From the NCBI GenBank assembly GCA_020632515.1, contig JACKFK010000005.1, positions 29,327 to 93,326 on the forward strand: a DNA stretch of 64,000 nucleotides. Direction: 5' to 3'. Shown here one piece after another: positions 7,872-60,288 of the stretch (the first letter of the stretch is position 1; each line of letters begins with the position of its first letter). This stretch comes from Candidatus Omnitrophota bacterium. GTDB taxonomy: Bacteria > Omnitrophota > Gorgyraeia > Zapsychrales > Zapsychraceae. Position numbers and translations under genes: made by a program. A model generated the notes under the pieces. The model had not been told where the DNA came from, ran no database searches, and saw only the letters and a program-made list of their open reading frames with translations.

Positions 7872-8720
7872 ATGGAAAAAAGAGCTTTAGGTAAAGGGTT
7901 GTCTGCTTTAATTCCTGAAAAAGAAGTTGAAATCCCAGAATCGGGGGTTTCCTATGTAAAAACAGAAATGGTTTCTGTTAGCAGTGTGCAACCGAGAAAG
8001 GATTATGATGAAGCGAAGTTGCTTGATTTAAAAAAATCCATTCAAGAAAAGGGTATCCTCCAGCCCATCTTAATAAGAAAAAAAGCAGAAGGCTTTGAAG
8101 TTATAGCCGGTGAAAGAAGATTAAGGGCCGCAACATCGTTGGGTTTGCCCGAAATTCCCGCAATTATTAAAGACGTCAGTGATAAAGAGGCTCTTGTTCT
8201 GGCTCTTATTGAAAATATACAAAGAGATGAATTAAATGCTGTTGAAGAAGCGGAAGCGTATAAACGGTTAATAGAAGAGTTTCAATATACACATGAAGAG
8301 GTCGCGAGATCGGTCAGTAAAGAGCGTTCTACTATTTCTAATTTATTGCGCTTGTTAAATTTACCCTTGATAATAAAAAAAGGGCTGGCTGAAGAAAAGA
8401 TTTCTATGGGACATGCGAGAAGTTTGTTAAGTTTAGGTTCTTTAGATGAGCAGACAAAAATGTACGATTTAATTTTAAAAAAAGGTTTGTCGGTTAGGGA
8501 GGTTGAAAATTTAGTAAAAAAAGAAACCGGAGGCGGAGCTCGTCGAGAAAAACTAAGCCCGGCCAAGGACCACGAATTAATTGCTTTGGAAGAAGAATTA
8601 CAAAAAAAATTAGGGACAAAGGTTCGTTTGCTCACAGCAAAAAAACGAGGCAAAATTGTCATAGAATATTATTCAATTGATGACTTAGATCGAATTTTAA
8701 AATTAATGGGAAAAAATTAA
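7872..8720 (+). CDS. parB: Chromosome partitioning protein ParB/Spo0J
   Basis: ParB box GERRLRAA plus an HTH region. ATG at 7872 is preceded by GGAGGTGG; the ORF is open from 7860. Confidence 0.92.
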   Translation: MEKRALGKGLSALIPEKEVEIPESGVSYVKTEMVSVSSVQPRKDYDEAKLLDLKKSIQEKGILQPILIRKKAEGFEVIAGERRLRAATSLGLPEIPAIIKDVSDKEALVLALIENIQRDELNAVEEAEAYKRLIEEFQYTHEEVARSVSKERSTISNLLRLLNLPLIIKKGLAEEKISMGHARSLLSLGSLDEQTKMYDLILKKGLSVREVENLVKKETGGGARREKLSPAKDHELIALEEELQKKLGTKVRLLTAKKRGKIVIEYYSIDDLDRILKLMGKN

Positions 8721-8751
8721 AAGGGGATTATTTTTATAGGACTAAATCGAT

Positions 8752-9261
8752 ATGAAACAGAAAGAAGCCGCATTAATAATAATAAAACCAGATGGTTTTC
8801 ACAAAGGTGTAATTGGGAACATTTTGTTAAAATTTTCTCAAGCGAATCTAGAAATCATAGCATTAAAAATTGCGAAATCTTCGCGAGAGCTCGCTGAACA
8901 ACACTATCAGCACATTAAGGACCAGCCCTTTTTTGAGGACGTAATGTCCTATTTTACTGGAAAGTATCATGGGATTAATAATTTGCTGGTAATTATTTAT
9001 TATGGTGAAAATGCCATTAAAAAGTGCCGAAAAATTGCTGGAGCGACTAACCCTGAAGAGGCGGATCCGAAAAGTATACGAGGATCTTATGGGCGTATTA
9101 CAACCAAAGGAACTTTTGAAAATGTGGTTCATGTCTCGTCAGACCCTTCAGAAGCAAAAAGAGAAATAAAAATATGGTTTAAGCCAGAAGATATTGTTAA
9201 AAATCTGTACGCCACAAAATGGGCGACAATTGCCGAACATAAAGAAAAGGTGTGGGCATGA
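8752..9261 (+). CDS. ndk: Nucleoside diphosphate kinase
   Basis: 169 aa. IIKPDG, and an active-site region NVVHVSSD (variant of N..HGSD). Confidence 0.85.
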   Translation: MKQKEAALIIIKPDGFHKGVIGNILLKFSQANLEIIALKIAKSSRELAEQHYQHIKDQPFFEDVMSYFTGKYHGINNLLVIIYYGENAIKKCRKIAGATNPEEADPKSIRGSYGRITTKGTFENVVHVSSDPSEAKREIKIWFKPEDIVKNLYATKWATIAEHKEKVWA

Positions 9262-10079
9262 TTAATGGCATGACAGGATTTGGCAGTGCACAAATTAATA
9301 CGGGGAAATTAAAAATATCTGTGGAAATAAAAAGCGTTAATCACAGATATTTTGATTTAAGCTCTTACTTACCCCCGGGGTTTGGTTCCTTAGAGAACAA
9401 AATTCGGCAAATGATTCAAAAGAGTATCACGAGAGGGAAAGTAACCTTATCGATAAAAATGATGCAGTTTACCTCGCAAAATTATCAAATTAATAAAGAT
9501 GTTGTTAAACAATATTTAAGCGCGGCAAGACAGTTAAAAAAAGAATTTGGTATTAGTGATGGTTTGTCTACTTTTGAGTTAATAAAATTACCTGGCGTTG
9601 TAGAATCCAAAGAAAAAAATATTAACGTAGAAGCTTTGTGGTCGGACATTGAAAAAAATATCGAAAAGGCTATGCTTGGACTGACGAAAATGAGACAGAG
9701 AGAAGGGCGCAGTTTGGCCGCAGATGTCAAAAATCTTTTATTGAAAATGTTATCTCATGTAAAGAAAATTGAGAAGCGTTCGGAAATGATCATAAAAGGT
9801 AAAAAAAAGGAATTAACAGACGACGAGCTAAAATCTTTTTTAAAGGGAATGGATGTAAGCGAAGAAGTATCGCGGTTAAAACACTATATTGGCGAAATGA
9901 GTTCTTTACTTAAAAGTGCTGTTTCTATAGGAAAAAAAATGGATTTTATTGCTCAGGAAATGCAAAGAGAAACAAACACGATAGGATCAAAGCTCCAAGA
10001 TAAAATTGTTTCAAACAGCGTTATTGCTTTAAAAAGTAAAATTGAAAAAATTCGCGAGCAATCTCAAAATATTGAATAG
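9258..10079 (+). CDS. yicC: YicC family protein (DUF1732)
   Basis: N-terminal MINGMTGFG is the typical YicC start. A conserved C-terminal region follows (FIAQEMQRETNTIGSK). The ATG overlaps the ndk stop (ATGA). Confidence 0.85.
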   Translation: MINGMTGFGSAQINTGKLKISVEIKSVNHRYFDLSSYLPPGFGSLENKIRQMIQKSITRGKVTLSIKMMQFTSQNYQINKDVVKQYLSAARQLKKEFGISDGLSTFELIKLPGVVESKEKNINVEALWSDIEKNIEKAMLGLTKMRQREGRSLAADVKNLLLKMLSHVKKIEKRSEMIIKGKKKELTDDELKSFLKGMDVSEEVSRLKHYIGEMSSLLKSAVSIGKKMDFIAQEMQRETNTIGSKLQDKIVSNSVIALKSKIEKIREQSQNIE

Positions 10080-10112
10080 CAACCGCCTTTTTAATTTAAA
10101 AATGACTATTGT

Positions 10113-10706
10113 ATGAAACGCGGAAAAATAATTATTATTTCAGGCCCGTCGGGTTCCGGAAAAACAACTTTATATAAAAAATTACTTAAAAGTTTAAAGT
10201 TTAAAAAGAAATTAGTAAAATCTGTTTCAGTGACTACGCGGGAGAAGCGAAAAGGAGAGATTGAAGGAAGAGATTATTTTTTTGTCAGTAAAAAGATGTT
10301 CTTTTATAAAAAAAAAGCCGGGCATTTTTTAGAGTCACAGCCGGTATTTGATAATTTTTACGGAACTCCAAAGAAGAATGTAAGAGATTTGCTAAAAAGA
10401 GGCAAAAACGTTCTTCTTTGTATTGATGTAAAAGGGGCAAAAGTTGTTGCACAACAATTTAAATCGGCAGTAAAGGTTTTTATTAAAACAGAAAATTGGG
10501 AAGAGCTCAAAAAAAGATTGCAGGCTAGAGGCTCCGATGATGAACGAAGCATGCGGTTACGCCTAAAAATAGCGAAAGATGAATTAAAGGAACAATCCAT
10601 GTATGATCATATTATTATTAATAGCAATTTAAATAAGGCCTTTTCTGAATTGACACAGATTATAAAGGAGGAGATATCTTTTGAGGATGAGAGTTGTAAC
10701 GCGTAG
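10113..10706 (+). CDS. gmk: Guanylate kinase
   Basis: P-loop GPSGSGKTT. Sits in the conserved yicC-gmk-rpoZ neighbourhood. Confidence 0.9.
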   Translation: MKRGKIIIISGPSGSGKTTLYKKLLKSLKFKKKLVKSVSVTTREKRKGEIEGRDYFFVSKKMFFYKKKAGHFLESQPVFDNFYGTPKKNVRDLLKRGKNVLLCIDVKGAKVVAQQFKSAVKVFIKTENWEELKKRLQARGSDDERSMRLRLKIAKDELKEQSMYDHIIINSNLNKAFSELTQIIKEEISFEDESCNA

Positions 10707-10768
10707 GAATTTCTTAAGTTGAGAAAATTTATCAAAAATTACCAAATAAGGGAAAATCGTTATTTTTT

Positions 10769-10797
10769 TTGACAAAAATAAGACGATATGATATATA
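10769..10797 (+). promoter_or_regulatory. Sigma70-type promoter candidate for rpoZ-coaC
   Basis: TTGACA (10769-10774), 17-nt spacer, TATATA (10792-10797). Confidence 0.4.
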
Positions 10798-10798
10798 T

Positions 10799-10837
10799 AC
10801 TCCCTATTATTAGAACCATAATATGGGAGTTTTTTAT
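10799..10837 (+). terminator. Intrinsic terminator candidate (after gmk)
   Basis: Stem ACTCCCTATTA / TAATA(T)GGGAGT with a one-nt bulge, 9-nt loop, followed by TTTTTATT. Confidence 0.5.
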
Positions 10838-10869
10838 TATAAGGCTACGAAAAAAGGAGATTAAAGATC

Positions 10870-11088
10870 ATGTCAGATTTACCAATTGAAGAACTATTAG
10901 AAAAATCGGATTTTAGTATATATCGATTAGTGAGAATGGCGGCCAAAAGAGCGTTGGAGATATCGGAAGGAAGAAAATGTTTGGTAGAAAACCCTTCATC
11001 AGATAAAGCGACATCTATGGCTTTGGAAGAAATTTTTCAAGGAAAAATAGAATATAAAAGAAAAAATGGGGCATCGCCCAAAAAGTAG
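10870..11088 (+). CDS. rpoZ: RNA polymerase omega subunit
   Basis: 72 aa. The YRLVRMAAKRA motif and the position after gmk. SD AAGGAG upstream. Confidence 0.88.
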   Translation: MSDLPIEELLEKSDFSIYRLVRMAAKRALEISEGRKCLVENPSSDKATSMALEEIFQGKIEYKRKNGASPKK

Positions 11089-11721: not shown

Positions 11722-11793
<72 letters not shown>

Positions 11794-11841
11794 TTTTAGG
11801 CGTTGTATCTTTTGATAAGAGACCGGAAATTAAAATTTTTT

Positions 11842-11924
11842 GGGCAAGTGGTGGAATGGCATACACGCAGGACTTAAAATCCTGTGGCCGTAAGGCCGTG
11901 TGGGTTCGACTCCCACCTTGCCCA
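11842..11924 (+). tRNA. tRNA-Leu (TAA)
   Basis: Acceptor GGGCAAG/CTTGCCC, anticodon loop CTTAAAA, long variable arm (GGCCGTAAGGCC), T-loop GGTTCGACTCC. Confidence 0.9.
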
Positions 11925-11987
11925 TGTTTACATTTAAAGGTGAAGCTTTTAACTTTTAGATTGGGTTATTAGAACAAAAGAATTTTC

Positions 11988-12026
11988 GGCCCCCGTAAAA
12001 CATTTCCACGGGGCCATTTCTTTTTT
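11988..12026 (+). terminator. Intrinsic terminator after tRNA-Cys/Leu
   Basis: GC stem GGCCCC(C)GT / ACGGGGCC, followed by ATTTCTTTTTT. Confidence 0.7.
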
Positions 12027-12050
12027 AAACGTGATTTATAGAATAAAAAA

Positions 12051-12127
12051 GGACCCGTAGCTCAGTTGGTTAGAGTGTTTCCTTGACATGGAAAAGGTCA
12101 CAAGTTCGAATCTTGTCGGGTCCACCA
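12051..12127 (+). tRNA. tRNA-Val (GAC), CCA encoded
   Basis: Acceptor GGACCCG/CGGGTCC, D-arm GCTCAGTTGGTTAGAG, anticodon loop TTGACAT, T-arm ACAAG-TTCGAAT-CTTGT, 3' ACCA. Confidence 0.92.
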
Positions 12128-21099: not shown

Positions 21100-21258
21100 T
21101 AATATCCCTGCGGTGTTTGTTAGAGAGTTATTTAAAAGAACCTAGACTTATTAAAGGGACGCTATACTTTCTAATTGTCTGAGGATGATTAGAAGTGGTA
21201 CCCACGTTGTGGAGCGGTTCACCTTTAAGTTCTCTCGACGGCATATGCGGGGATATTA
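21100..21258 (+). ncRNA. ssrS: Structured RNA, 6S RNA-like (candidate ssrS)
   Basis: A 198-nt non-coding gap that folds by hand into a long interrupted rod.
- 21101-21111 AATATCCCTGC pairs with 21247-21257 GCGGGGATATT.
- AGAGAG (21122-21127) pairs with TCTCT (21231-21235), continued by G-U pairs.
- GAACC (21138-21142) pairs with GGTTC (21216-21220).
- The enclosed open region has an apical hairpin TTCTAAT/ATTAGAA (21169-21194) and a small 3'-side hairpin CCAC-GTT-GTGG.
The 5' UCCCUGCGGUGUUUG and 3' UUCACCUU...CGGCAUAUGCGGGGAU resemble my recollection of enterobacterial 6S ends. A 5-formyl-THF cyclo-ligase gene lies nearby, as ygfA does next to E. coli ssrS. Confidence 0.5.
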
Positions 21259-45996: not shown

Positions 45997-47235
45997 ATGC
46001 CTAAAAAAGTAACACAAAGTAAAAAATTAAATGTTAATCAAAGTCAGGAATTAAGCGTTTTACGTAAGGTTGTTGATATAACGAATTCAGAACTTGATCT
46101 ATCTTTTATATTAAGCGAAGTTGTAAAGATTGTTACTGAAATGACAAAAGCGGATTCAGTTTTTATTTATTTATTCGACGAGAAAAAAAGACATTTGGTT
46201 TTAATGGCTTCAAAAACACCGCATAAAAAAGAATTAGGCAGTATTATTTTAAAATCTGGAGAAGGGATTACTGGATGGGTTGCGCGCGAAAACAGACCTG
46301 TTGCTATTTCTGAAAACGCGTATGCGGATAAACGTTTTAAAAATTTCGATGTTCTGCCAGAAGATAGATATGAAGCCTTTTTATCTGTGCCGATTGTTCA
46401 TAAAAATAAGGCTATCGGCGTTATTAATGTTCAGCATAAAAAGTCACATGAACATGCGGAGAGCACGATTAGTTTAATGTCAACGATTGCTAAGCAAATC
46501 AGCGGTGTTATTGAGCACGCGCGTTTATATGAGGAAACAAAGAAAAAAGCTTTACAGTTTGACAGCCTGCAAAAAGTAAGCGAATCAATAACGTCCAAAG
46601 CTTATTTAGATGAAATTTTAAATCTAATAGTTGTGGTTACCGCGGAAATGTTAAATTCAAAAATTTGTTCAATTATGTTATTAGATAAAAAAGGAAAAGA
46701 ATTGGAAATCTGTGCGACGCAAAGTTTAAGCACAGAGTATAAAAAGAAACCAAATTTAAAAGTTGATGAAAGTTTAAGCGGCGAGGTTATCAAAATAAAG
46801 AAGCCGATTGCTATTTACGATGTGCGGGAAGATAAAAAATATCGTTTTAAAGATTTGGCTATTAAAGAGAATTTGACTTCCATGGTTGCGATTCCAATGG
46901 TGCTTAAGGATAAAGCTATTGGTGTTATCAATGTTTATACAAAAGAGCATCATATTTTTTCTGAAGAAGAAATTAATGTTTTGCAAATTGTTGCTAACCA
47001 AGCTGCTGTTGCCGTCGAGAATACGAAGTTAATGGAAGAGGCTATTAAATCGAAAGAGGCTCTAGAGGCGAGGAAAGTTATTGAGCGGGCTAAAGGTATT
47101 TTGATGGAAATGAATAATTTGAATGAAGCGGCAGCGCATCGGCTTATTCATAAAAAAGCTATGGATTCGTGTAAATCGATGAAAGAAATTGCGGAATCCA
47201 TTATATTGATGGATGAATTTCAAAAAGGAAAATAA
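45997..47235 (+). CDS. GAF-GAF-ANTAR RNA-binding antiterminator-type regulator
   Basis: 412 aa. Two GAF-like units, each ending in IGVINV (..AIGVINVQHK.., ..AIGVINVYTK..). C-terminal ANTAR domain: LEARKVIERAKGILMEMNNLNEAAAHRLIHKKAMDSCKSMKEIAESII. Confidence 0.85.
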   Translation: MPKKVTQSKKLNVNQSQELSVLRKVVDITNSELDLSFILSEVVKIVTEMTKADSVFIYLFDEKKRHLVLMASKTPHKKELGSIILKSGEGITGWVARENRPVAISENAYADKRFKNFDVLPEDRYEAFLSVPIVHKNKAIGVINVQHKKSHEHAESTISLMSTIAKQISGVIEHARLYEETKKKALQFDSLQKVSESITSKAYLDEILNLIVVVTAEMLNSKICSIMLLDKKGKELEICATQSLSTEYKKKPNLKVDESLSGEVIKIKKPIAIYDVREDKKYRFKDLAIKENLTSMVAIPMVLKDKAIGVINVYTKEHHIFSEEEINVLQIVANQAAVAVENTKLMEEAIKSKEALEARKVIERAKGILMEMNNLNEAAAHRLIHKKAMDSCKSMKEIAESIILMDEFQKGK

Positions 47236-47250
47236 TTTTTATCCCCCCCC

Positions 47251-47279
47251 TTGACAAAATAAACAAGGGGTTGTATACT
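47251..47279 (+). promoter_or_regulatory. Sigma70-type promoter for the amtB-glnK leader
   Basis: TTGACA (47251-47256), 17-nt spacer, TATACT (47274-47279). Confidence 0.6.
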
Positions 47280-47286
47280 TCGAGCA

Positions 47287-47331
47287 TTAAGACAAAGATG
47301 TCTTAAATTGATTTGCAGGACAAAGAAGTCC
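47287..47331 (+). promoter_or_regulatory. Tandem hexaloop hairpins (ANTAR-target type), unit 1
   Basis: P1 is TTAAGAC-AAAGAT-GTCTTAA (47287-47306). P2 is GGAC-AAAGAA-GTCC (47318-47331). Both loops have 6 nt with A at position 1 and G at position 4. The P2 3' arm is part of the 5' arm of terminator T1. Confidence 0.7.
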
Positions 47332-47367
47332 GGATCCAATAGTGAAATTGGCCGGGCTTATTTTTTT
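47326..47367 (+). terminator. Leader terminator T1
   Basis: Base stem AAGTCCGG/CCGGGCTT (one G-U), 2-nt bulge, tip CCAAT-AGTGAA-ATTGG, then ATTTTTTT. Confidence 0.75.
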
Positions 47368-47383
47368 GAGACAATGATGTCTC
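47368..47383 (+). promoter_or_regulatory. Hexaloop hairpin (ANTAR-target type), unit 2
   Basis: GAGAC-AATGAT-GTCTC. The loop has A at position 1 and G at position 4. The 3' arm overlaps the 5' arm of T2. Confidence 0.6.
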
Positions 47384-47415
47384 CTTTTAAAGGTTTATTT
47401 GAAAGGAGATTTTTT
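47380..47415 (+). terminator. Leader terminator T2
   Basis: TCTCCTTT / AAAGGAGA (8 bp, 14-nt loop) followed by TTTTTTATTT. Confidence 0.7.
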
Positions 47416-47452
47416 ATTTATATCTATTTGGCCAAGGAGGTTAAATAGATTA

Positions 47453-47468
47453 AGGACACAGAGGTCCT
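47453..47468 (+). promoter_or_regulatory. Hexaloop hairpin (ANTAR-target type), unit 3
   Basis: AGGAC-ACAGAG-GTCCT. The loop has A at position 1 and G at position 4. The 3' arm overlaps the 5' arm of T3. An upstream hairpin ATCTATTT/AAATAGAT (47422-47450) presents AAGGAG in its loop. Confidence 0.65.
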
Positions 47469-47506
47469 CTTATTCAACCAAAGCTGGTTGAGAGAGGGCC
47501 TTTTTT
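47462..47506 (+). terminator. Leader terminator T3
   Basis: Base stem AGGTCCTCT/AGAGGGCCT (one G-U), 2-nt bulge, tip TTCAACC-AAAGCT-GGTTGAG, then TTTTTT. Same architecture as T1. Confidence 0.8.
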
Positions 47507-47551
47507 ATTGGCAATAAGATAATTTTCATATTGAAGGAGAAGGAGAGAAAA

Positions 47552-48880
47552 ATGATCAAACGGTTATGGAGAAAAGGAATCATGAAGGTGACAATGGGCT
47601 TGGGAGGAATGCTGTTTTTATCTGGATCAGCGTTCGCTCAAGAAGGTGTTAGTCAAGAGATGTTCACGGTTAATAACACTTGGATGTTGGTGGCTACTTT
47701 TTTGGTATTTGTGATGCATTTAGGTTTTGCAACATTAGAATCCGGTTTAACCAGAGCTAAGAATACAGTAAATATTCTTTTTAAAAATGTGGCAATCCTT
47801 TCAATTGGGTTGTTGACTTACGCAGTCGTAGGATTCAATCTAATGTATCCCAGTGAATGGGCTGCTGGATTATGGCTTCCGAAATTAGCTTTTGGTATTG
47901 GACTACCAGCCGATTATATTTCCGGACAATATGCAGATGGAGGGTATACTTACTGGACTGATTTTATTTTTCAGGCTATGTTTGCGGCAACTTGTGCGAC
48001 AATTGTTTCCGGAGCGGTTGCCGAACGGATTAAGCTGCACAGTTTTTTACTTTTCTCGACAATTTATGTAGCCTTTGTTTATCCATTTTTAGGAAGCTGG
48101 AAATGGGGCGGCGGTTGGTTAGATAACATGGGTTTTTATGATTTTGCTGGGTCTACATTAGTTCATTCTGTTGGAGGTTGGGCAGCATTGGCTTGTGTTT
48201 TAATCTTGGGGCCACGTTATGGAAAATATAATGGTTCTGCCAAGGCTATTCCTGGACACAGCATGCCTTTAGCCACTATTGGAGTTTTTCTTTTATGGTT
48301 AGGGTGGTTTGGTTTTAATGGCGGGTCTGTTCTTTCCGCTGATCCAGAATTAGTTTCTTTTGTCTTTGTTACAACTACATTAGCTGCAGCTGCGGGTGTT
48401 ATAGGAGCGATGTTTACTTCAGAATTACTTTTGAAAAAACCGGATTTGTCGATGGTGTTAAACGGGTCTTTGGCTGGTTTGGTTGGGATAACAGCAGGAG
48501 CAGATACTGTTAGTGTACTTTCCTCGATTATAATAGGATTAATCGCAGGGGCTTTGGTTGTGGTCTCGGTAATATTTATCGATTCGAAATTAAAAATAGA
48601 TGATCCTGTTGGGGCCTTATCTGTTCATTTGGTTTGCGGTATTTGGGGAACCCTTGCGGTAGGGATCTTCAGTACAAATCCTGAGCATAGCTTTATGACG
48701 CAATTAATAGGTGTTTTAGCCTATGGAAGCGTTTCTTTTATTGCCGCCTATGGTATCTTTTCAGTTATAAAATCTTTTATGGGCGTACGTGTAACGGAAA
48801 GAGAAGAGATAAGAGGTTTGGATATCGACGAACATGGTATGGAGGCTTATGCAGGATTCCAAATATTTACAACGGAATAG
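47552..48880 (+). CDS. amtB: Ammonium transporter AmtB
   Basis: Signal peptide (..SGSAFAQEG) and Amt family motifs (DFAGSTLVHSVGGWAAL; GWFGFNGG). SD GGAGAAGGAGAG lies before ATG 47552; the ORF is open from TTG 47531. Confidence 0.94.
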   Translation: MIKRLWRKGIMKVTMGLGGMLFLSGSAFAQEGVSQEMFTVNNTWMLVATFLVFVMHLGFATLESGLTRAKNTVNILFKNVAILSIGLLTYAVVGFNLMYPSEWAAGLWLPKLAFGIGLPADYISGQYADGGYTYWTDFIFQAMFAATCATIVSGAVAERIKLHSFLLFSTIYVAFVYPFLGSWKWGGGWLDNMGFYDFAGSTLVHSVGGWAALACVLILGPRYGKYNGSAKAIPGHSMPLATIGVFLLWLGWFGFNGGSVLSADPELVSFVFVTTTLAAAAGVIGAMFTSELLLKKPDLSMVLNGSLAGLVGITAGADTVSVLSSIIIGLIAGALVVVSVIFIDSKLKIDDPVGALSVHLVCGIWGTLAVGIFSTNPEHSFMTQLIGVLAYGSVSFIAAYGIFSVIKSFMGVRVTEREEIRGLDIDEHGMEAYAGFQIFTTE

Positions 48881-48922: not shown

Positions 48923-49264
48923 ATGAAATTAATAATAGCTATGATAAAGCCGCATCAATTGCCAGCGACAAAAAAAGCGCTTTTTGATGCAGGAATTACT
49001 AAAATGACTGTTACAAACGTATTGGGTTGTGGACAGCAAGGAGGTTATAGTGAAACCTATCGCGGGGTAAAGCAAGAAATCAATTTGTTAAAAAAGATTC
49101 GAATTGAAATCGCGGTCAATGACGCTTTTGAAGAACCTACGATCAAAGCAATTGTAAAGGGAGCAAAGACAGGGCGAATTGGTGATGGGAAAATATTTGT
49201 GCTTGATTTGCCGAGATGTATTCGTATCCGCACAGAGGAGGAAGGATCAGAAGCTATTGGGTAG
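48923..49264 (+). CDS. glnK: Nitrogen regulatory protein P-II (GlnK/GlnB)
   Basis: 113 aa. [13 protein letters not shown]..., a T-loop with YRG, and the C-terminal GDGKIFV..L...IRIRT.E.G. Directly downstream of amtB. Confidence 0.93.
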
Positions 49265-49342
49265 GCTTTGAAGAAGGGTATAACAAGGTTATTAAATGTG
49301 TAACTTATGACAGTGTAATGACTTTGGGGTTAAGAAAAAAAC

Positions 49343-49371
49343 TTGACAAAAACAAATCTAAATTGTATATT
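49343..49371 (+). promoter_or_regulatory. Sigma70-type promoter for the type III GS leader
   Basis: TTGACA (49343-49348), 17-nt spacer, TATATT (49366-49371). Confidence 0.55.
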
Positions 49372-49455
49372 TATGAATCTTCTTTAATATATTTATTTTA
49401 AAGAAGGGCTGAATTAAAAAATAAGAAAGCACTATAATGTGTGACTCAAAATATT

Positions 49456-49471
49456 AGGGCAACGAAGTCCT
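49456..49471 (+). promoter_or_regulatory. Hexaloop hairpin (ANTAR-target type) in the glnN leader
   Basis: AGGGC-AACGAA-GTCCT. The loop has A at position 1 and G at position 4. The 3' arm is the start of the terminator 5' arm. Confidence 0.65.
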
Positions 49472-49511
49472 TCTTAAAAGTTAGACAATTTTTAAGAAGG
49501 ACTTTTCTTTT
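49466..49511 (+). terminator. glnN leader terminator
   Basis: 14-bp stem AGTCCTTCTTAAAA / TTTTAAGAAGGACT, 10-nt loop, followed by TTTCTTTTC. Lies 47 nt upstream of the glnN ATG. Confidence 0.8.
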
Positions 49512-49557
49512 CATATCTTTGTGAAGAAATATTATCAAATTTAATAGGAGGGGAAAG

Positions 49558-51705
49558 ATGGCTTCAAGATCTAGATTAAAAGAAATAGTTAATAAAGGAG
49601 AGTTAGACATGGCGGAATTAACACAGATCAGGACCGTTCCAGAATATTTTGGCGAGAATGTTTTTAATTTAAAAACTATGCGCAATTATCTTTCTGCGAA
49701 GGCCTATAAATCATTAAGTGAAACTATTAAGAATAACGGAAAATTAGATCCTACCATTGCTGATGAGGTTGCGGATGCGATGAAAACCTGGGCTGTTTCA
49801 AAAGGGGCGACACATTATACTCATTGGTTTCAGCCGTTAACAGGAACAACGGCAGAAAAACACGATTCCTTTATTCAGCCCGACGGAGAAGGTGGTGTTT
49901 TATTGACATTTTCCGGTGAAGAATTAATCCAAGGAGAACCAGATGCGTCGAGTTTTCCGTCAGGGGGGTTGCGGCCAACTTTTGAAGCTCGAGGGTATAC
50001 TGGATGGGATCCAACAAGTCCTGCTTTTATTAAAGAAGGACCTCAAGGAGCTACTTTGTGTATTCCTACTTATTTCGTCGGATGGAAAGGAGAAGCGTTA
50101 GATAAGAAAACTCCTTTGCTTCGTTCGATGAAAGCTTTATCTAAGCAAGTTGGACGTTTAGCTGATTTGTTAGGCATTAAAGCAAAGCAAAACGCCTATG
50201 CAACATTAGGTGGGGAGCAGGAATATTTTCTAATTGATAGAGATTTTTATTATCAGCGGATTGATCTTGTTCAAACAGGAAGAACTTTATTTGGAAAAGA
50301 ACCAGCAAAACATCAACAAATGGCAGACCATTATTTTGGCGCCATTAAATCACGTGTTATCGCTTTTATGGAAGATTTGGATCGTGAAATGTGGAAATTA
50401 GGGGCTCCGATCAAAACACGACACAATGAAGTTTCTCCAGGGCAGTTTGAAATAGCTCCAATATTTGAAAATCAAAATTTAGGAGTCGATCATAATATGT
50501 TGTGCATGGAAGTTATGCAAAAAGTCGCGGAAAAACATGGTCTGGCCTGTTTACTTCATGAGAAACCGTTTAAAGGTGTCAATGGATCGGGAAAACATAA
50601 TAATTGGTCTGTGACGGGGCCTGATGGAAAAAATTGGTTATCCCCAGGTGAAAATCCTCATGAAAATGAACGTTTTTTGGTTATGGTTGCCGCAATTATT
50701 AAAGCTGTTGATAATTATTCTGATTTGTTAAGAGCAGGTATTGCCTCGGCAGGAAATGATCATCGATTAGGTTCTCATGAAGCTCCACCAGCAATTGTTT
50801 CAATATATTTAGGAGAACAATTAACTGATATTTTTGAACAAATAGAAAAAGGTTCGGCAACAAAAAGTTCGAAACAAGGCGGGACGCTTGAAGTTGGTGT
50901 TGATTCATTACCTCCTTTGCCTCGTCATGCTTCAGATCGAAATAGAACTTCGCCATTTGCTTTTACTGGGTCAAAGTTTGAATTTCGAGCTGTTGGATCA
51001 GCTCATAGTTTAGCAGGTCCAAATATCATTATTAATACGATAGTAGCAGATGCTATTTCAGACATTTGTGAAGAATTAGAGGATGCTAAAAAAGGAAAAA
51101 AAGATATTAATAAAACTGCGCAAAAAATTGTACAGGAAATTATTAAAAAACATAAAAGGATCATATTTAACGGTGATAATTATACCGAAGATTGGGTTAA
51201 AGAAGCAAAGAAGCGTGGATTACCAAATATGAAAACCACGCCGGAAGCCTTAGAGGTAATGAAGGATAAGAGAATTGCCGAGCTTTTTGAAAGGCATAAA
51301 GTTCTTTCGAAGAAAGAATTAGATTCTCGATATGGTGTTTATACGGAAACATATGAAACCATTGTTAGATATGAGGGGGCATTAGCCGCCGATATGGTAA
51401 AGACATTAATTGTTCCAGCAGCATTGGAATACACTGCCAATTTAGCGGAAACAATTAAATCAATAGAAAGTATTAATAAAACAAAAGCAACAGCTGTCAG
51501 AAATATTCTTAAAGATGTTGCTAGTAATATGGAAAAAGCAGCTGATGAAACAACTAAGTTAGAAACAGCATTGAAGGGGGCTTCGACGGATAAAATTCGA
51601 AAAATAATGGCTGATTTACGTGAGGCTGTTGACGCTCTTGAGGGTTTGGTTCCAGCAGAAATTTGGCCATTACCTTCATATGCAGAAATGCTGTTTATTT
51701 CATAA
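49558..51705 (+). CDS. glnN: Glutamine synthetase type III
   Basis: 715 aa, the GSIII size class. N-terminal FGENVFN..MR..L; catalytic region [39 protein letters not shown]. Confidence 0.92.
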
Positions 51706-51751
51706 GCATTGAATTGTTTTAAAAAAATAATATTAGAATGCGCAGTTTGGG

Positions 51752-51786
51752 GGGGTAGGTTTATAACCTGCCCCTTACGTTTTTTA
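51752..51786 (+). terminator. Intrinsic terminator candidate after glnN
   Basis: GGGGTAGGTT - TAT - AACCTGCCCC (one G-U), then TTACGTTTTTT. It ends 5 nt before the next ATG. Confidence 0.55.
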
Positions 51787-54273: not shown

Positions 54274-57200
54274 ATGATAAACAACGGATTTTTCTTACCC
54301 AAAAAGCAAGCCTTATATGATCCTTCATTTGAACATGAAAGTTGTGGAGTTGGTTTTGTTGTTAATATAAAAGGGAAAAAATCACACGAAATTGTCCGCA
54401 ATGGTGTTCAAATCCTTGAAAATTTGACCCATCGCGGGGCTTGTGGTTGTGACCCTGAAACCGGAGATGGCGCAGGAATACTTCTACAAATTCCAGATGC
54501 TTTTTTTAGAAAAGAGTGTAGTAAGCTGAATATTGAACTGCCAGCAGAAGGAGACTATGGGGCGGGGATTGTTTTCTTGCCGCAAAATTTAGAGGAGCGA
54601 AATAAAATTGAGCAATGGTTTGAGCATATCATCCATGAAGAGGAACAAATCTTTTTGGGATGGCGGAGCGTTCCTCACGACAGCACAAAAATAGGAAAAG
54701 TTGCAAGATCCGTAGAGCCTGAATTTAAGCAAGTTTTTGTTGGCCGGGGAAAAGATACCTCTCCTGAAGATTTTGAACGAAAATTATATGTTATTCGTAA
54801 GCGATTGTTTAATACAGTTCAAGAGTCGATATTAAATCAAAAAAGTTTTTATTATTTCTGTAGTCTTTCCAGTAAAACAATTGTCTATAAAGGACAATTG
54901 ATGGCGGAGCAGTTGGATAAATTTTTCTTGGATTTAAATGATCCGGATATGGTTTCTGCTTTGGCCATGGTTCATTCACGCTATAGTACAAACACATTTC
55001 CTACCTGGGCTTTAGCCCATCCTTACCGTATGATCGCGCATAATGGAGAAATTAACACGTTACGTGGAAATAAGAATTGGATGTATGCTCGGGAAAAGCA
55101 ATTTATTTCTGATGTATTCGGCGAAAAAGATTTGAAAAAAACATTATCTGTTATTGTTCCTCATGGAAGTGATTCTGCAACGTTTGATAATGTTTTTGAG
55201 ATGTTGGTATTAGCTGGGAGGTCATTGCCTCATGTGGCAATGATGATGATCCCCGAGGCTTGGAATGGCCACGAAAATATGGATAAAAACAAAAAAAGTT
55301 TTTATGAATATCATTCATGTTTAATGGAACCATGGGATGGCCCGGCATCAATAGGTTTTACTGACGGACGATATATCGGCGCAGTTTTAGATCGGAATGG
55401 TTTGCGACCGTCACGTTATTGGTTGACTACGGATGATAAGATTATCATGGCTTCTGAAACAGGGGTGTTAGATATTCCTGAGGAAAATATTTTAAAAAAA
55501 GGACGATTACAACCAGGAAAAATGTTTTTGGTAGACACTAAAGAAGGTCGCATAATCGACGACGAGGAATTAAAGAAAGAAATAGCGACACAAAATCCGT
55601 ATGAACAATGGTTAAAAGAAAATATTCTTGATCTGGAAGATTTGCCGTTGCCTAAGAAGGTTCAAGGATTAAATGAAAAAACTTTAATTGAGCGGCAAAA
55701 GGCCTTTGGATACACTTTAGAAGATTTGAAAATTATTTTACAGCCTATGGCTATGACAGGGATTGAAGCCACAGGTTCAATGGGGGCAGACACGCCGCTA
55801 TCTGTTTTATCTACGCGACCAACGCTTCTTTTTACTTACTTTAAACAACTGTTTGCGCAGGTTACTAACCCTCCGATTGACCCTATTCGAGAAGAAATTG
55901 TTATGGCCGAAGATGTTATGTTAGGGGCTGAAGGGAATTTGTTAGAGGAATCCCCATATCATTGCCGTCGGATACGATTGAAAAAACCTATATTAACAAA
56001 TGAAGAATTAGAAAAAATTAGAGCTGTTAAACAGGCGGGGCTTAAATCAAAAACATTCTCTATGGTTTTTAATGCTAGTGATGGCAAGGCAGGTTTAGAA
56101 AAATCTTTAGAAGAATTATTTAATCAAGTCGATGAAGCTATTCAAAAAGGTTTAAATATAATTGTTTTGTCTGATCGAGCTGTCAATAAAGAAAATGTTC
56201 CGATGCCGTCATTGCTTGCTTGTTCGGGGCTGCACCATCATTTGATTCGTCAAGGAACACGGACGAAGGTTAGTATTGTTTTAGAAACCGGAGAAGCTCG
56301 GGAGATGCATCATTTTGCTGTCTTGATCGGTTATGGAGCAAATGCGATTAATCCTTATTTGGCTTTTGAAACTATTGAAAGTGAAATCAAAAATAAAATT
56401 TATCCAAGCGACATTACTTTTTATGAAGCTCAAAAAAATTATATTAAATCAACTCGCAAAGGATTGTTTAAAATCATTTCAAAAATGGGAATTTCAACGA
56501 TTCAATCTTATTGTGGGGCCCAAATTTTTGAAGCCGTGGGATTAGAGCTTGCTTTTATTAAAAAGTATTTTACTGCCACCCCTTCTCGAATAGGAGGGAT
56601 TGGTATTGAAACAGTGGCTGAAGAAATGATACGACGACATAAAGCAGCATATCCTCAAGAAAATACGTATGACAATATGCTTGATATCGGGGGAGATTAT
56701 CATTGGAGACAAGAAGGGGAGCATCATCAACTGAATCCAAAGACGATTGCGTTGCTACAGCACTCTGTTAGATCAGGAGATTATAGGATATTTAAGCAAT
56801 ACGCGAAACTTGTCAACGAACAACAAACTAATTTGGCGAATATCCGTGGGTTATTAAAATTTAAAAAGGGAAAATCTATCCCTATTGAAGAGGTCGAACC
56901 TGTTTCGGAAATTGTTAAACGATTCGCGACCGGGGCCATGAGTTATGGTTCCATTTCAAAAGAAGCCCATGAAACATTGGCGATTGCGATGAATCGATTA
57001 GGAGGTTTTTCAAATACAGGGGAAGGCGGGGAAGATCCAGATCGTTTTAAAAAAGATGCTAACGGAGATTGGCGTCGGAGTCGTATTAAGCAGGTAGCCC
57101 AAGGACGTTTTGGTGTTACCATAGAATATTTAGTTAATTCTGATCAGATGCAGATTAAAATGGCGCAAGGGGCAAAGCCGGGAGAAGGTGGTCAATTACC

Positions 57201-58839
57201 AGGCCATAAGGTTAGTAAAGAAATTGCGGCAACTCGATATACGACGCCTGGTGTAGGATTAATTTCTCCACCGCCTCACCATGATATATATTCCATCGAA
57301 GATCTCGCGCAGCTAATTCACGATTTGAAAAATGCTAATCCAAAAGGAGATGTGAGTGTTAAGTTGGTTTCTGAAATTGGTGTTGGAACAATTGCTGCAG
57401 GGGTTTCTAAGGGAAAAGCGGATCACCTTTTAATTAGTGGGTATGAAGGCGGAACAGGCGCATCGCCGCAAACCTCAATTAAAAATGCCGGGCTTCCCAT
57501 GGAATTGGGGATAGCCGAAACGCAACAGGTTTTAGTTATGAATGATTTAAGAGGCCGTATAAGGGTTCAGACCGACGGACAGTTAAAGACTGGAAGAGAC
57601 GTTGCCATTGCAGCGATGTTGGGTGCGGATGAATTTGGTTTCTCAACGATTGCTTTAGTTACCATGGGGTGTATTTTATTAAGAAAATGCCATTTAAATA
57701 CATGTTCGGTGGGGATTGCCACGCAAGATAAAGATTTAAGGAAAAAGTTTTCAGGCAAGGCAGACTATGTTGTCAATTTTTTTAGTTTCGTTGCGCAAGA
57801 AGTTCGGGAAATTATGGCAGAATTAGGATTTCGAAAATTTGAAGATATGATCGGGCGAGTAGATATGTTAGAAACTCAAGAAGTCGTAAATCATTGGAAG
57901 GCCAAAGGACTTGATTTAATTAATATTTTACATAAGGCGGATGTTCCCGAGCAAGTTGCTATTCGTCATGTTGCACAACAAGATCACGGTTTAGAAAAAG
58001 CTTTGGATAATCGCTTAATTGAAAGCTGTCAGGAAGCTATCGAGCATAAAAGGCCTGTTCATTTTGATTGCAAAATTAAAAATACAAATCGAACTGTTGG
58101 GACAATGTTAAGCAGTGTTATAGCGAAGAAATATGGCTTAACAGGACTTCCGGAAAATACGATTAAAGTAAAATTTCAAGGGTCTGCCGGACAAAGTTTT
58201 GGGGCGTTTTTATCACAAGGGGTTTCTTTTACATTAGAAGGAGACGCTAATGATTATGTAGGAAAAGGATTGTCTGGCGGCAGGATTATTGTTCATCCTT
58301 CAAAGAAATCTAAACTTGTCCCCGAGGATAATATTATTGTTGGGAATGTTGTTTTATATGGAGCGATAAAAGGAGAGGCTTATTTTAGAGGTTTAGCGGG
58401 CGAGCGTTTTTGTGTTCGTAATAGCGGGGCTTTAACCGTTGTTGAAGGTGTAGGAGATCATTGTTGTGAATATATGACAGGTGGGCGAGTTGTAATATTG
58501 GGTGAGACAGGACGCAATTTTGCCGCAGGAATGAGCGGGGGGGTTGCTTATGTATGGGATCAAAAAGGAGATTTTCGAGATCATTGTAATATGGGAATGG
58601 TTGAATTGTTTTCAGTCGAAGATAAAGACGATATTCAAGAATTAAAAGCGTTGATAGAAAACCATTATACTTATACGGAAAGTACGGTTGCAAAGAAGAT
58701 ATTAGATAATTGGAATCAATCAATAAAACAATTTGTAAAAGTTTATCCAACTGATTATCGTCGAGTTATTGAAGAAAATAAATTAGCGCAATTAGAGATA
58801 AGCGAAGCCGAACGTGAAGAAGCAGTAGAACAGAATTAA
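54274..58839 (+). CDS. gltB: Glutamate synthase large subunit
   Basis: 1521 aa. Ntn amidotransferase start at ..HESCGVGF, followed by central, FMN and C-terminal GXGXG beta-helix domains. Confidence 0.96.
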   Translation: MINNGFFLPKKQALYDPSFEHESCGVGFVVNIKGKKSHEIVRNGVQILENLTHRGACGCDPETGDGAGILLQIPDAFFRKECSKLNIELPAEGDYGAGIVFLPQNLEERNKIEQWFEHIIHEEEQIFLGWRSVPHDSTKIGKVARSVEPEFKQVFVGRGKDTSPEDFERKLYVIRKRLFNTVQESILNQKSFYYFCSLSSKTIVYKGQLMAEQLDKFFLDLNDPDMVSALAMVHSRYSTNTFPTWALAHPYRMIAHNGEINTLRGNKNWMYAREKQFISDVFGEKDLKKTLSVIVPHGSDSATFDNVFEMLVLAGRSLPHVAMMMIPEAWNGHENMDKNKKSFYEYHSCLMEPWDGPASIGFTDGRYIGAVLDRNGLRPSRYWLTTDDKIIMASETGVLDIPEENILKKGRLQPGKMFLVDTKEGRIIDDEELKKEIATQNPYEQWLKENILDLEDLPLPKKVQGLNEKTLIERQKAFGYTLEDLKIILQPMAMTGIEATGSMGADTPLSVLSTRPTLLFTYFKQLFAQVTNPPIDPIREEIVMAEDVMLGAEGNLLEESPYHCRRIRLKKPILTNEELEKIRAVKQAGLKSKTFSMVFNASDGKAGLEKSLEELFNQVDEAIQKGLNIIVLSDRAVNKENVPMPSLLACSGLHHHLIRQGTRTKVSIVLETGEAREMHHFAVLIGYGANAINPYLAFETIESEIKNKIYPSDITFYEAQKNYIKSTRKGLFKIISKMGISTIQSYCGAQIFEAVGLELAFIKKYFTATPSRIGGIGIETVAEEMIRRHKAAYPQENTYDNMLDIGGDYHWRQEGEHHQLNPKTIALLQHSVRSGDYRIFKQYAKLVNEQQTNLANIRGLLKFKKGKSIPIEEVEPVSEIVKRFATGAMSYGSISKEAHETLAIAMNRLGGFSNTGEGGEDPDRFKKDANGDWRRSRIKQVAQGRFGVTIEYLVNSDQMQIKMAQGAKPGEGGQLPGHKVSKEIAATRYTTPGVGLISPPPHHDIYSIEDLAQLIHDLKNANPKGDVSVKLVSEIGVGTIAAGVSKGKADHLLISGYEGGTGASPQTSIKNAGLPMELGIAETQQVLVMNDLRGRIRVQTDGQLKTGRDVAIAAMLGADEFGFSTIALVTMGCILLRKCHLNTCSVGIATQDKDLRKKFSGKADYVVNFFSFVAQEVREIMAELGFRKFEDMIGRVDMLETQEVVNHWKAKGLDLINILHKADVPEQVAIRHVAQQDHGLEKALDNRLIESCQEAIEHKRPVHFDCKIKNTNRTVGTMLSSVIAKKYGLTGLPENTIKVKFQGSAGQSFGAFLSQGVSFTLEGDANDYVGKGLSGGRIIVHPSKKSKLVPEDNIIVGNVVLYGAIKGEAYFRGLAGERFCVRNSGALTVVEGVGDHCCEYMTGGRVVILGETGRNFAAGMSGGVAYVWDQKGDFRDHCNMGMVELFSVEDKDDIQELKALIENHYTYTESTVAKKILDNWNQSIKQFVKVYPTDYRRVIEENKLAQLEISEAEREEAVEQN

Positions 58840-58854
58840 GAGGTTAATAACACT

Positions 58855-60288
58855 ATGGGTGAAATTACAGGATTTATGAAGTATGACAGGAAAGATTTTG
58901 AAAAACAACCTGTCGATGAACGATTAAAACACTGGAAAGAATTTAATAAAGAAATGTCTGTCGAAGACATTCGAACTCAGGGAGCTCGGTGCATGGATTG
59001 TGGGGTTCCTTTTTGTCAATCCGGATGTCCCATAAATAATATTATACCTGATTGGAACGATCTTATTTATCGCGATCATTGGAAAGAAGCGATAGAACGG
59101 CTTCATAAAACAAATAATTTTCCTGAATTTACTGGCCGGGTTTGTCCTGCTCCTTGTGAAAATTCTTGTGTTCTTTCGATTAATGAACCTGCTGTTACAA
59201 TTAAAAACATTGAAGTATCTATTATAGAGAAAGCTTATCAAGAAGGATGGATAAAACCGACAGCTCCTAAAAATCGCTCAGGAAAAAAAATAGCTGTTGT
59301 TGGTTCAGGGCCTGCAGGATTAGCTTGCGCAGATCAGCTTAATAAAGCCGGACATGCCGTTACTGTGTATGAAAAAAATGAAGTTCCAGGGGGATTATTA
59401 ACACTCGGTATTCCAGATTTCAAGATGGAAAAATGGGTTGTTGAACGTCGACTGAAAATAATGGAAAAAGAAGGTGTAAAGTTTAAAACAAAAACACATA
59501 TCGGTGTTGATATTCCAGTAAAGAAGTTGGTTGATGAATACGATGCTGTAGTTTTATGTGGTGGGGCTGAACAGCCGAGAGATTTAGAGGTTCCTGGGCG
59601 TGAATTAGAAGGCGTCTATTTTGCGATGGAGTTTTTAACGCAGCAGAATCGTGTGTTGTTGGGGCAAAAGATTGATCCAAAAAATAGGATTAATGTCGAA
59701 GGAAAAAATGTTGTTGTTTTAGGCGGAGGCGATACAGGTTCTGATTGTATTGGGACGTCTAATCGACAAAAAGCCGCGTCTGTTAGAAATTTTGAATTAT
59801 TACCCAGACCGCCAAAAGAAAGAGCAGCGGATAATCCTTGGCCTAATTGGGCTTTTATTGAAAGAAATTCAACGTCACATGAAGAAGGTGTTGAGAGAGA
59901 ATTTGCGGTATTAACTAAAAAGCTTAGCGGAGAAGATGGGAAGTTAAAAAAGCTTCACGGGGTTCGTTTAGAATTCGGGCTCAAAGATCCTGAAACAGGA
60001 CGAAGCCCGATGAAAGAAATTCCCGGTTCAGAATTTGAGATTGATGTGGATGTTGTTTTGCTGGCCATGGGATTTTTAGGGCCTGTTAAAAATGGAATGT
60101 TAACTGAATTGGGTGTTGAATTGGATGCGCGGGGAAATGTTAAGGCGGACAACAATAAGATGACCAGCATTCCAGGTGTTTTTACTGCCGGGGATATGAC
60201 TCGAGGACAATCATTGGTTGTTTGGGCTATTCAAGAAGGTAGGGCTGCTGCTCGAGGTGTTCATCAATATCTAACTACTGAAAAATAG
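58855..60288 (+). CDS. gltD: Glutamate synthase small subunit (NADPH)
   Basis: 477 aa. Fe-S Cys clusters (CMDCGVPFCQSGCP), and the dinucleotide folds VVGSGPAGLA and VLGGGDTGSDC. Confidence 0.95.
   Translation: MGEITGFMKYDRKDFEKQPVDERLKHWKEFNKEMSVEDIRTQGARCMDCGVPFCQSGCPINNIIPDWNDLIYRDHWKEAIERLHKTNNFPEFTGRVCPAPCENSCVLSINEPAVTIKNIEVSIIEKAYQEGWIKPTAPKNRSGKKIAVVGSGPAGLACADQLNKAGHAVTVYEKNEVPGGLLTLGIPDFKMEKWVVERRLKIMEKEGVKFKTKTHIGVDIPVKKLVDEYDAVVLCGGAEQPRDLEVPGRELEGVYFAMEFLTQQNRVLLGQKIDPKNRINVEGKNVVVLGGGDTGSDCIGTSNRQKAASVRNFELLPRPPKERAADNPWPNWAFIERNSTSHEEGVEREFAVLTKKLSGEDGKLKKLHGVRLEFGLKDPETGRSPMKEIPGSEFEIDVDVVLLAMGFLGPVKNGMLTELGVELDARGNVKADNNKMTSIPGVFTAGDMTRGQSLVVWAIQEGRAAARGVHQYLTTEK

Follow-up and report, generated by a model that had tools for sequence, protein, structure and literature searches.

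A likely ANTAR-class transcription attenuator between glnK and the type III glutamine synthetase gene glnN in an Omnitrophota genome

The spacer of 293 nucleotides (nt) between glnK and glnN, the gene for type III glutamine synthetase, in a 64-kb stretch of contig JACKFK010000005.1 from a Candidatus Omnitrophota bacterium (the window, G+C 36%) is likely to be a protein-dependent transcription attenuator of the ANTAR class. Both the ANTAR attenuator and the co-regulation of glnN with amtB-glnK are well supported at the level of sequence, because the promoter, hairpin and terminator of the leader are conserved, the terminator carries compensatory changes, and hexaloop hairpins with A in the first and G in the fourth loop position (A1/G4) are enriched 15-fold in the leaders concerned. 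A three-way pairing scheme among the leader segments W, X and Y, which a sequence-only reading of the window had offered as a second regulatory layer, is probably incidental and confined to this genome among those compared. The leader and its gene comprise the following elements.

49343-49371, + strand: glnN promoter TTGACA-17-TATATT (TTGACA at 49343-49348, TATATT at 49366-49371; 11/12 match)
49378-49407, + strand: W:X hairpin, W (49378-49387) paired with the core of X (49398-49407); 10 bp, 10-nt AU loop, -7.8 kcal/mol
49395-49410, + strand: segment X, which repeats the terminator 3' arm (49488-49503) directly at 14 of 16 positions and can pair with the terminator 5' arm
49429-49442, + strand: small hexaloop hairpin GCAC-UAUAAU-GUGU, -3.5 kcal/mol, 13 nt upstream of the ANTAR-type hairpin
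49456-49471, + strand: ANTAR-type hexaloop hairpin AGGGC-AACGAA-GUCCU with A1 and G4 in its loop, -5.5 kcal/mol; putative antiterminator when bound
49464-49511, + strand: intrinsic terminator, 19-bp stem 49464-49505 (2 G.U), loop AGAC, U tract UUUUCUUUU at 49503-49511
49546-49553, + strand: Shine-Dalgarno sequence AGGAGGGG of glnN
49558-51705, + strand: glnN, type III glutamine synthetase, 715 aa from ATG 49558 (Pfam GSIII_N, Gln-synt_C, Gln-synt_C-ter)

At the centre of the leader, bases 49464-49471 are common to the hexaloop hairpin, of which they form the loop end and 3' arm, and to the foot of the terminator, whose hairpin energy is -21.8 kcal/mol. The sequence-only reading had described this hairpin, its A1/G4 loop and its overlap with the terminator 5' arm just as we find them, and it had also placed the terminator and its U tract correctly, but its count of 14 bp is too low for a stem of 19 pairs. 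The terminator unites a stable stem, a U-rich tract behind it and covariation support, as expected of intrinsic terminators, and the fold of the leader is better than that of 200 of 200 shuffled sequences (z = -4.0). When the + strand of the 64 kb was scanned for ANNGNN six-base loops closed by at least five pairs, including at least two G-C pairs, eight A1/G4 hairpins were found against 5.3 in shuffles, and the amtB and glnN leaders, 588 nt in all, contain six of the eight against an expectation of 0.05. A scan of the whole window for hairpins whose 3' arm opens a terminator-like hairpin with a T tract behind it returned six sites, four in the amtB leader, one in the glnN leader and one at 38903 with a G1 loop and a poor T tail; hairpin-on-terminator units in the 64 kb are confined to the amtB and glnN leaders.

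The promoter that the sequence-only reading had named stands where it was placed, is preceded by an A tract, has TG immediately 5' of its -10 box and is one of only two promoter matches of 11/12 in 11.5 kb, the other being that of the amtB leader. The motif AAAAATCTTGACAAA-N-TTGTATAyT is kept in all 13 related glnN leaders that we compared and looks like a strong housekeeping-type promoter of the clade; the amtB (47244-47279) and glnN (49336-49371) promoters have CTTGACAAAA...TTGTATAyT in common. From the spacing of the promoter, a transcript start near 49377-49378 is predicted.

The partner leader and the presumed regulator lie directly upstream.

45997-47235, + strand: GAF-GAF-ANTAR regulator gene, presumed trans-acting antiterminator (Pfam: two GAF domains and ANTAR at 2e-19)
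47251-47510, + strand: amtB-glnK leader with promoter TTGACA-17-TATACT, six A1/G4 hexaloop hairpins and three tandem terminators (units 1-3)
47287-306, 47318-31, 47336-51, 47368-83, 47453-68 and 47473-92, + strand: the six hexaloop hairpins of that leader
47531-48880, + strand: amtB (Pfam)
48923-49264, + strand: glnK/PII (Pfam)

The feet of the amtB-leader terminators overlap the hairpins at 47318, 47368 and 47453, so that this leader has three hairpin-plus-terminator units and the glnN unit is the fourth, as the sequence-only reading had counted. In two of the amtB units a second hexaloop stands at the terminator apex, 4 nt after the foot-overlapping hairpin, an arrangement that departs from the classical ANTAR order with P1 upstream and P2 on the terminator. 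A search for a second hexaloop in the apex of the glnN terminator, like those of amtB units 1 and 3, found none; a loop UAGACA is one way of drawing this apex. The hairpin consensus GGRC-AnnGAn-GUCC is common to the amtB and glnN leaders, both here and in relatives, and the window contains one ANTAR gene, at 45997-47235, directly upstream of amtB. The earlier proposal that a single ANTAR protein controls glnN together with amtB-glnK is thus supported by the single ANTAR gene, the shared hairpin consensus and the conserved elements. The first GAF domain of the regulator (window 45997-46530) is closest to the GAF domain of PtsP/EI-Ntr (PDB 3ci6, E 2.7e-24; also 3trc).

The comparison rests on 13 related Omnitrophota loci (L001, L161, L163 and L165-L174; 64-79% GlnN identity where scored), which were fetched individually; two large scans of genome and metagenome contig collections with GlnN gave mostly 50-60% relatives among the matches listed. 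Across these loci the order amtB-glnK-glnN-GATase-nadE is conserved, and in seven of them a GAF-GAF-ANTAR gene, 70-78% identical to that of the window, lies directly upstream of amtB. The hairpin (A)GGGC-AnnGnn-GUCC(U), overlapping and fused to a terminator, is kept in 10 of the 13 relatives; nine of these ten homologous attenuators have the A1/G4 loop pattern, and L166 has G1. In an alignment of nine attenuators, GGGC/GUCC is invariant, including its G.U pair, while the flanks diverge, and L161 is identical to the window over 26 nt of hairpin and terminator arm between divergent flanks. The outer 12 pairs of the terminator are 93.5% paired over the nine leaders, compared with 47-71% in register-shifted controls, four of them show changes on both sides, and the covariation score was reached by 0 of 500 shuffles. 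Covariation of the hairpin itself is not demonstrable within the glnN leaders because the hairpin is invariant there. Over 12 loci, the density of A1/G4 hexaloops per kb is 5.4 in the leaders of amtB and glnN and 0.36 elsewhere, the 15-fold enrichment mentioned above, and their stems vary from site to site (GGAC/GUCC, GAGAC/GUCUC, AACC/GGUU, CCAAU/AUUGG, UGAGC/GCUCG and others), a variety that supports the stem-loop itself. In L001, L166, L167 and L168 the amtB leader, too, contains the glnN-type hairpin letter for letter, which fits one protein serving both leaders.

In the mechanism that we infer, including the binding of the protein, its signal, the point where transcription starts and what W:X does, a strong and probably constitutive sigma-70-type promoter (49343-49371) would start a leader of about 180 nt, in which the nascent RNA would fold first into W:X, then into the small UAUAAU hairpin and then into the ANTAR hairpin. 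By default, in the absence of bound protein, the terminator 3' arm would displace the 5-bp hairpin (-5.5 versus -21.8 kcal/mol), and a transcript of about 130 nt would be released near 49506-49511. W:X would hold X paired, so that the terminator is the default, and may also protect the 5' end. The active GAF-GAF-ANTAR protein, encoded three genes upstream, would bind the hexaloop of 49456-49471 and its closing pairs and keep 49464-49471 from the terminator foot; the upper stem that remains would be AU-only and end at least 5 nt short of the U tract, and termination should therefore fail, after which the polymerase would transcribe glnN as far as the terminator at 51750-51776. Nitrogen limitation is presumably what activates the regulator; the GAF domain of E. 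coli PtsP/EI-Ntr, which its first GAF domain resembles, responds to glutamine and 2-oxoglutarate. The three amtB-glnK units would be further targets of this protein, giving one small nitrogen-assimilation regulon.

Several findings weigh against the reading of the leader as an ANTAR attenuator with an incidental pairing scheme. The glnN terminator is missing in 3 of the 13 relatives, L001 having a hairpin without a clear terminator and L167 and L172 having neither, and the attenuator is therefore dispensable in some lineages. No second A1/G4 hexaloop with a stem of at least 3 bp occurs in 49372-49455, so the leader departs from the dual-hexaloop definition of ANTAR targets. The duplex that X can form with Y, within the terminator 5' arm, has its equal in about one of every 1000 sequences obtained by dinucleotide shuffling of the upstream leader, and explaining it as a by-product of the repeat in X does not fully account for this rarity.

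Two hexaloop hairpins separated by 5-12 nt make up the classical ANTAR substrate; EutV achieves antitermination only with both hairpins and the 5-12 nt linker, and EutV-dependent induction is lost when the linker is lengthened or shortened (PMC3369931, PMC8934654). GCAC-UAUAAU-GUGU has the right position for a canonical P1, yet it was rejected as one, its loop being without A1 and G4. In six relatives a canonical upstream hairpin is present at 37-47 nt from the terminator-proximal one, and four have none. Single hexaloops on glnN terminators also occur far beyond this clade. A survey of 169 loci with at least 150 nt upstream of glnN yielded 24 distant loci from other phyla (Lachnospiraceae, other Clostridia and Treponema) that have a terminator in the 400 nt before the gene and, overlapping it, an A1/G4 hexaloop (GAAC-AAGGGY-GUUC, UAAAGC-AAAGGC-GCUUUG and similar). 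In eight distant leaders inspected by eye (L032, L046, L062, L098, L103, L128, L143 and L155), no partner A1/G4 hexaloop occurs within 30 nt, and several of the hairpins start within about 10 bases of the -10 box, which leaves no room for one. Single-hexaloop attenuation may thus be the rule for glnN. In L059, L153 and L157, ANTAR-domain genes are encoded on the opposite strand at a distance of 0.8-5.9 kb upstream of glnN.

The minimal motif for ANTAR binding consists of one hexaloop (PMC8934654), and the conserved site CAGGCAANGGCGCC to which GnfR binds in Geobacter is also single and overlaps terminators in the nif, glnK and amtB leaders (2010, PMC2995071). The glnN leader has one A1/G4 hexaloop set to exclude a terminator, in a genome with an ANTAR gene, and to judge by these features it belongs under the single-hexaloop ANTAR definition and not the dual-hairpin one, because it lacks a partner hexaloop and matches both the GnfR site and the minimal one-hexaloop motif. 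With the dual-hexaloop RNAs of EutV/eut from Enterococcus faecalis, NasR/nasF and AmiR/amiE (PMC3369931) it shares an A1/G4 hairpin whose 3' arm starts the terminator, an ANTAR regulator encoded nearby, nitrogen-metabolism targets and several units per regulon. It differs from them in its one canonical hexaloop, in the upstream hairpin of its relatives, which stands 37-47 nt off instead of 5-12, and in the tandem GAF sensor in place of a receiver, NIT or AmiR_N domain; whereas EutV antitermination needed both hairpins, one canonical hexaloop would have to suffice here, a sufficiency that is putative. The GnfR site of Geobacter sulfurreducens (GGC-AANGGC-GCC, PMC2995071) is likewise single and on a terminator, and GGGC-AAyGAn-GUCC is close to it, but GnfR is a phosphorylated response regulator under sigma-54, in contrast to the GAF regulator and sigma-70-like promoters found here, and the targets here include type III glutamine synthetase. 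The element agrees with the single-hexaloop or recruitment-hairpin model (Walshe et al. 2022, PMC8934654), in which one hexaloop suffices for binding, and a second stem-loop that deviates from the consensus has already been described for 'category 2' ANTAR RNAs (10.1101/660928).

The pairings W:X, X:Y and Y:Z are mutually exclusive and are all present in the leader sequence. The W:X hairpin claimed by the sequence-only reading exists both in the sequence and in the minimum free energy (MFE) fold; the complementarity of X to the terminator 5' arm, with one bulge, is also real, although X:Y (49396-49409 with 49467-49479) comprises 15 pairs and not 13. In the full model of the sequence-only reading, W:X would serve as anti-antiterminator and X:Y as an antiterminator that needs no protein, so that freeing X, for example by occupation of W, would add a second input to that of the ANTAR protein, and some of the energetics suit such a hybrid: X:Y as a duplex reaches -16.2 kcal/mol and W:X only -9.3 kcal/mol, X:Y becomes the MFE structure when W is blocked until the terminator 3' arm emerges, and the unpaired GGGC in X could be a toehold for invasion. 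The rarity of X:Y among shuffles points the same way, and a compensating device is thinkable in a leader that lacks the upstream recruitment hexaloop present in six relatives. Against this, W:X is in the MFE fold at every transcript length with an equilibrium probability of at least 0.73 throughout, whereas that of X:Y peaks at 0.24-0.27 while the 3' end lies at 49480-49484, a 5-nt window of elongation, and is 0 from the completion of the terminator onwards; the complete terminator is the MFE structure also when W is blocked. No sensor was found on W, where Rfam gave nothing at threshold and no credible leader open reading frame (ORF) or ligand-binding fold covers it, although an undetected factor may act there. 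X:Y is not independent evidence because X is a 14/16 repeat of the terminator 3' arm. In the homologous attenuators the terminator 5' arm has no significant upstream partner in any of the ten except L171, where the partner is its own upstream ANTAR hairpin, trivially similar to the proximal one; the same duplex test gave shuffle fractions of 0.27-0.94 in the others, which are no better than shuffles (L161, L163, L165, L166, L168, L169, L170, L173 and L174), and L161, with its identical hairpin and terminator arm, is without X. The sequence-only reading had itself named a lack of conservation of W:X and X:Y in homologous leaders as grounds for refutation, and there the pairings are indeed not conserved; with X:Y absent from ten homologues, W:X dominant and no sensor found on W, its conserved second input is unsupported. 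As these comparisons indicate, X:Y is not a conserved control element and follows from X nearly copying the terminator 3' arm. We consider the hybrid switch unlikely, and its more specific form, in which W:X gates a 15-bp X:Y antiterminator that replaces the recruitment hexaloop and lets read-through integrate the ANTAR protein and a second input, rather doubtful as well; a lineage-specific function of the three-way scheme keeps a small chance, given that GlnN identity to the nearest relative does not exceed about 79%. The topology of exclusive W:X, X:Y and Y:Z pairings, with X copying the terminator 3' arm, is that of trp-type and PyrR-type 1:2, 2:3, 3:4 attenuators, from which the leader differs in having no leader peptide or binding site found on W and in the lack of conservation of the scheme.

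Two other accounts were weighed against the protein-dependent attenuator, both of which we regard as very improbable. The terminated RNA of about 130 nt (49378 to about 49510) might be the chief product and titrate the ANTAR protein in trans, as EutX/Rli55 does EutV, and not mainly gate glnN: a strong conserved promoter and an efficient-looking terminator would make a short RNA with an ANTAR hairpin and a stabilising 5' hairpin abundant, and single-hexaloop decoys have been discussed (PMC8934654). Its hairpin (P2), however, has a pair probability of 0 at full length, being consumed by the terminator, and the decoy site would therefore be hidden; moreover, the element always lies directly upstream of glnN in sense orientation. 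Alternatively, the terminator could be the mere 3' end of the amtB-glnK operon, with a chance hexaloop and an unattenuated glnN, and the terminator scan indeed came up empty from the glnK stop (49264) to 49464. Yet the conserved promoter lies upstream of the terminator, so that transcripts starting there must meet it, the hairpin is invariant in relatives with diverging flanks, and such hairpins are enriched 15-fold in these leaders.

When the 5' ends of the transcripts are aligned locally, over a short stretch, W:X falls at the site of the upstream ANTAR hairpin of L166, L170 and L171 (C..UUUAAGGC-AAnGAn-GUCUUAAAGG); the window and L168 retain its lower stem, with an AU-rich loop without the hexaloop at the apex. 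W:X could thus be a former upstream ANTAR hairpin that lost its hexaloop. Candidate leader peptides, sought by eye, were all rejected: ATG 49373 (MNLL*) precedes the predicted transcript start, the 61-aa ORF 49216-49401 starts inside glnK, and the mini-ORF 49438-49458 (MCDSKY*) lacks nitrogen-related codons and has only a weak ribosome-binding site. With its stop codon this mini-ORF (AUG UGU GAC UCA AAA UAU UAG) reaches into the 5' arm of the ANTAR hairpin. The purine motif GAAGAAGGG has a third copy at 49269-49279, 5 nt past the glnK stop and upstream of the glnN promoter, which on amtB-glnK read-through transcripts could also base-pair with the terminator 5' arm; the window has 21 occurrences of AAGAAGGR, versus 8.3 expected.

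Searches with Rfam gave no family in the glnN leader at the gathering threshold and, at a relaxed one, only sub-threshold matches to rli56 and microRNA-like families on the long hairpin, and a riboswitch or T-box reading of the leader is unsupported by these scans. The match to Listeria rli56 (RF01483; 32.1 bits at 49436-49536, under the gathering threshold of 47) reflects likeness in the GCAACG hexaloop region and the terminator. The RF01483 consensus itself holds GAGC-AACGGG-GCUC, an A1/G4 hexaloop leading into a terminator, and because of this feature rli56 may be an unrecognised ANTAR-type attenuator. In the amtB leader, a PyrR match (47379-47508) scored 30.7 bits against a threshold of 54 and is driven by a terminator.

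A 2012 study predicted, across phyla, ANTAR RNA targets with A1/G4 hexaloops overlapping terminators ahead of the genes for PII, ammonium transporters and glutamine/glutamate synthases (PMC3369931), and GAF-ANTAR proteins are common and essentially uncharacterised (PMC3369931, 10.1101/660928, PMC12591593, a 2025 review). Our literature search found no paper connecting the ANTAR domain with Omnitrophota. The present locus would extend ANTAR control of an ammonium transporter, PII and type III glutamine synthetase to this phylum, which is without cultures or studied gene regulation, and it indicates a tandem-GAF ANTAR protein as the regulator. Together with the distant leaders, it suggests that ANTAR targets of the nitrogen class often carry a single hexaloop on the terminator foot, as opposed to the dual hairpin of eut. 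Current understanding is not overturned, and the one unusual aspect is the window-specific X:Y helix; if true, the W:X/X:Y device would be a so far undescribed hybrid of ANTAR and three-segment attenuation.

On the + strand, Pfam gives the gene order Nqr subunits, GAF-GAF-ANTAR gene, amtB, glnK/PII, glnN, class-I glutamine amidotransferase and NAD synthase, to which the following features are added.

51750-51776: separate terminator 3' of glnN, from the terminator scan
54274-58839 and 58855-60288, + strand: two large ORFs after the NAD synthase gene

The ORF 54274-58839 matches the glutamate synthase large subunit called at the same position in relatives, and the closest non-self GlnN match in the searched collections is 79% identical. 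The public annotation of the 100% identical GlnN, in a Candidatus Omnitrophica metagenome-assembled genome, starts 17 codons downstream (49609; 698 aa); the long form from ATG 49558 is favoured by the strong ribosome-binding site AGGAGGGG and by the homologues, most of which have 710-719 aa at 100% coverage. L166, L168 and L170, which have no ANTAR gene beside amtB, carry a full PtsP (GAF and PEP-utilizer domains) further upstream, at positions 1-2300. In L172, two toxin-antitoxin pairs (HigB-like with HTH_3; PhdYeFM with PIN) are situated at 8306-10951 among glnN, the amidotransferase gene and nadE. Elsewhere in the window, Rfam at the gathering threshold reports a 6S RNA (50.6 bits) and three tRNA genes, at 21102-21257 and 11722-12124.

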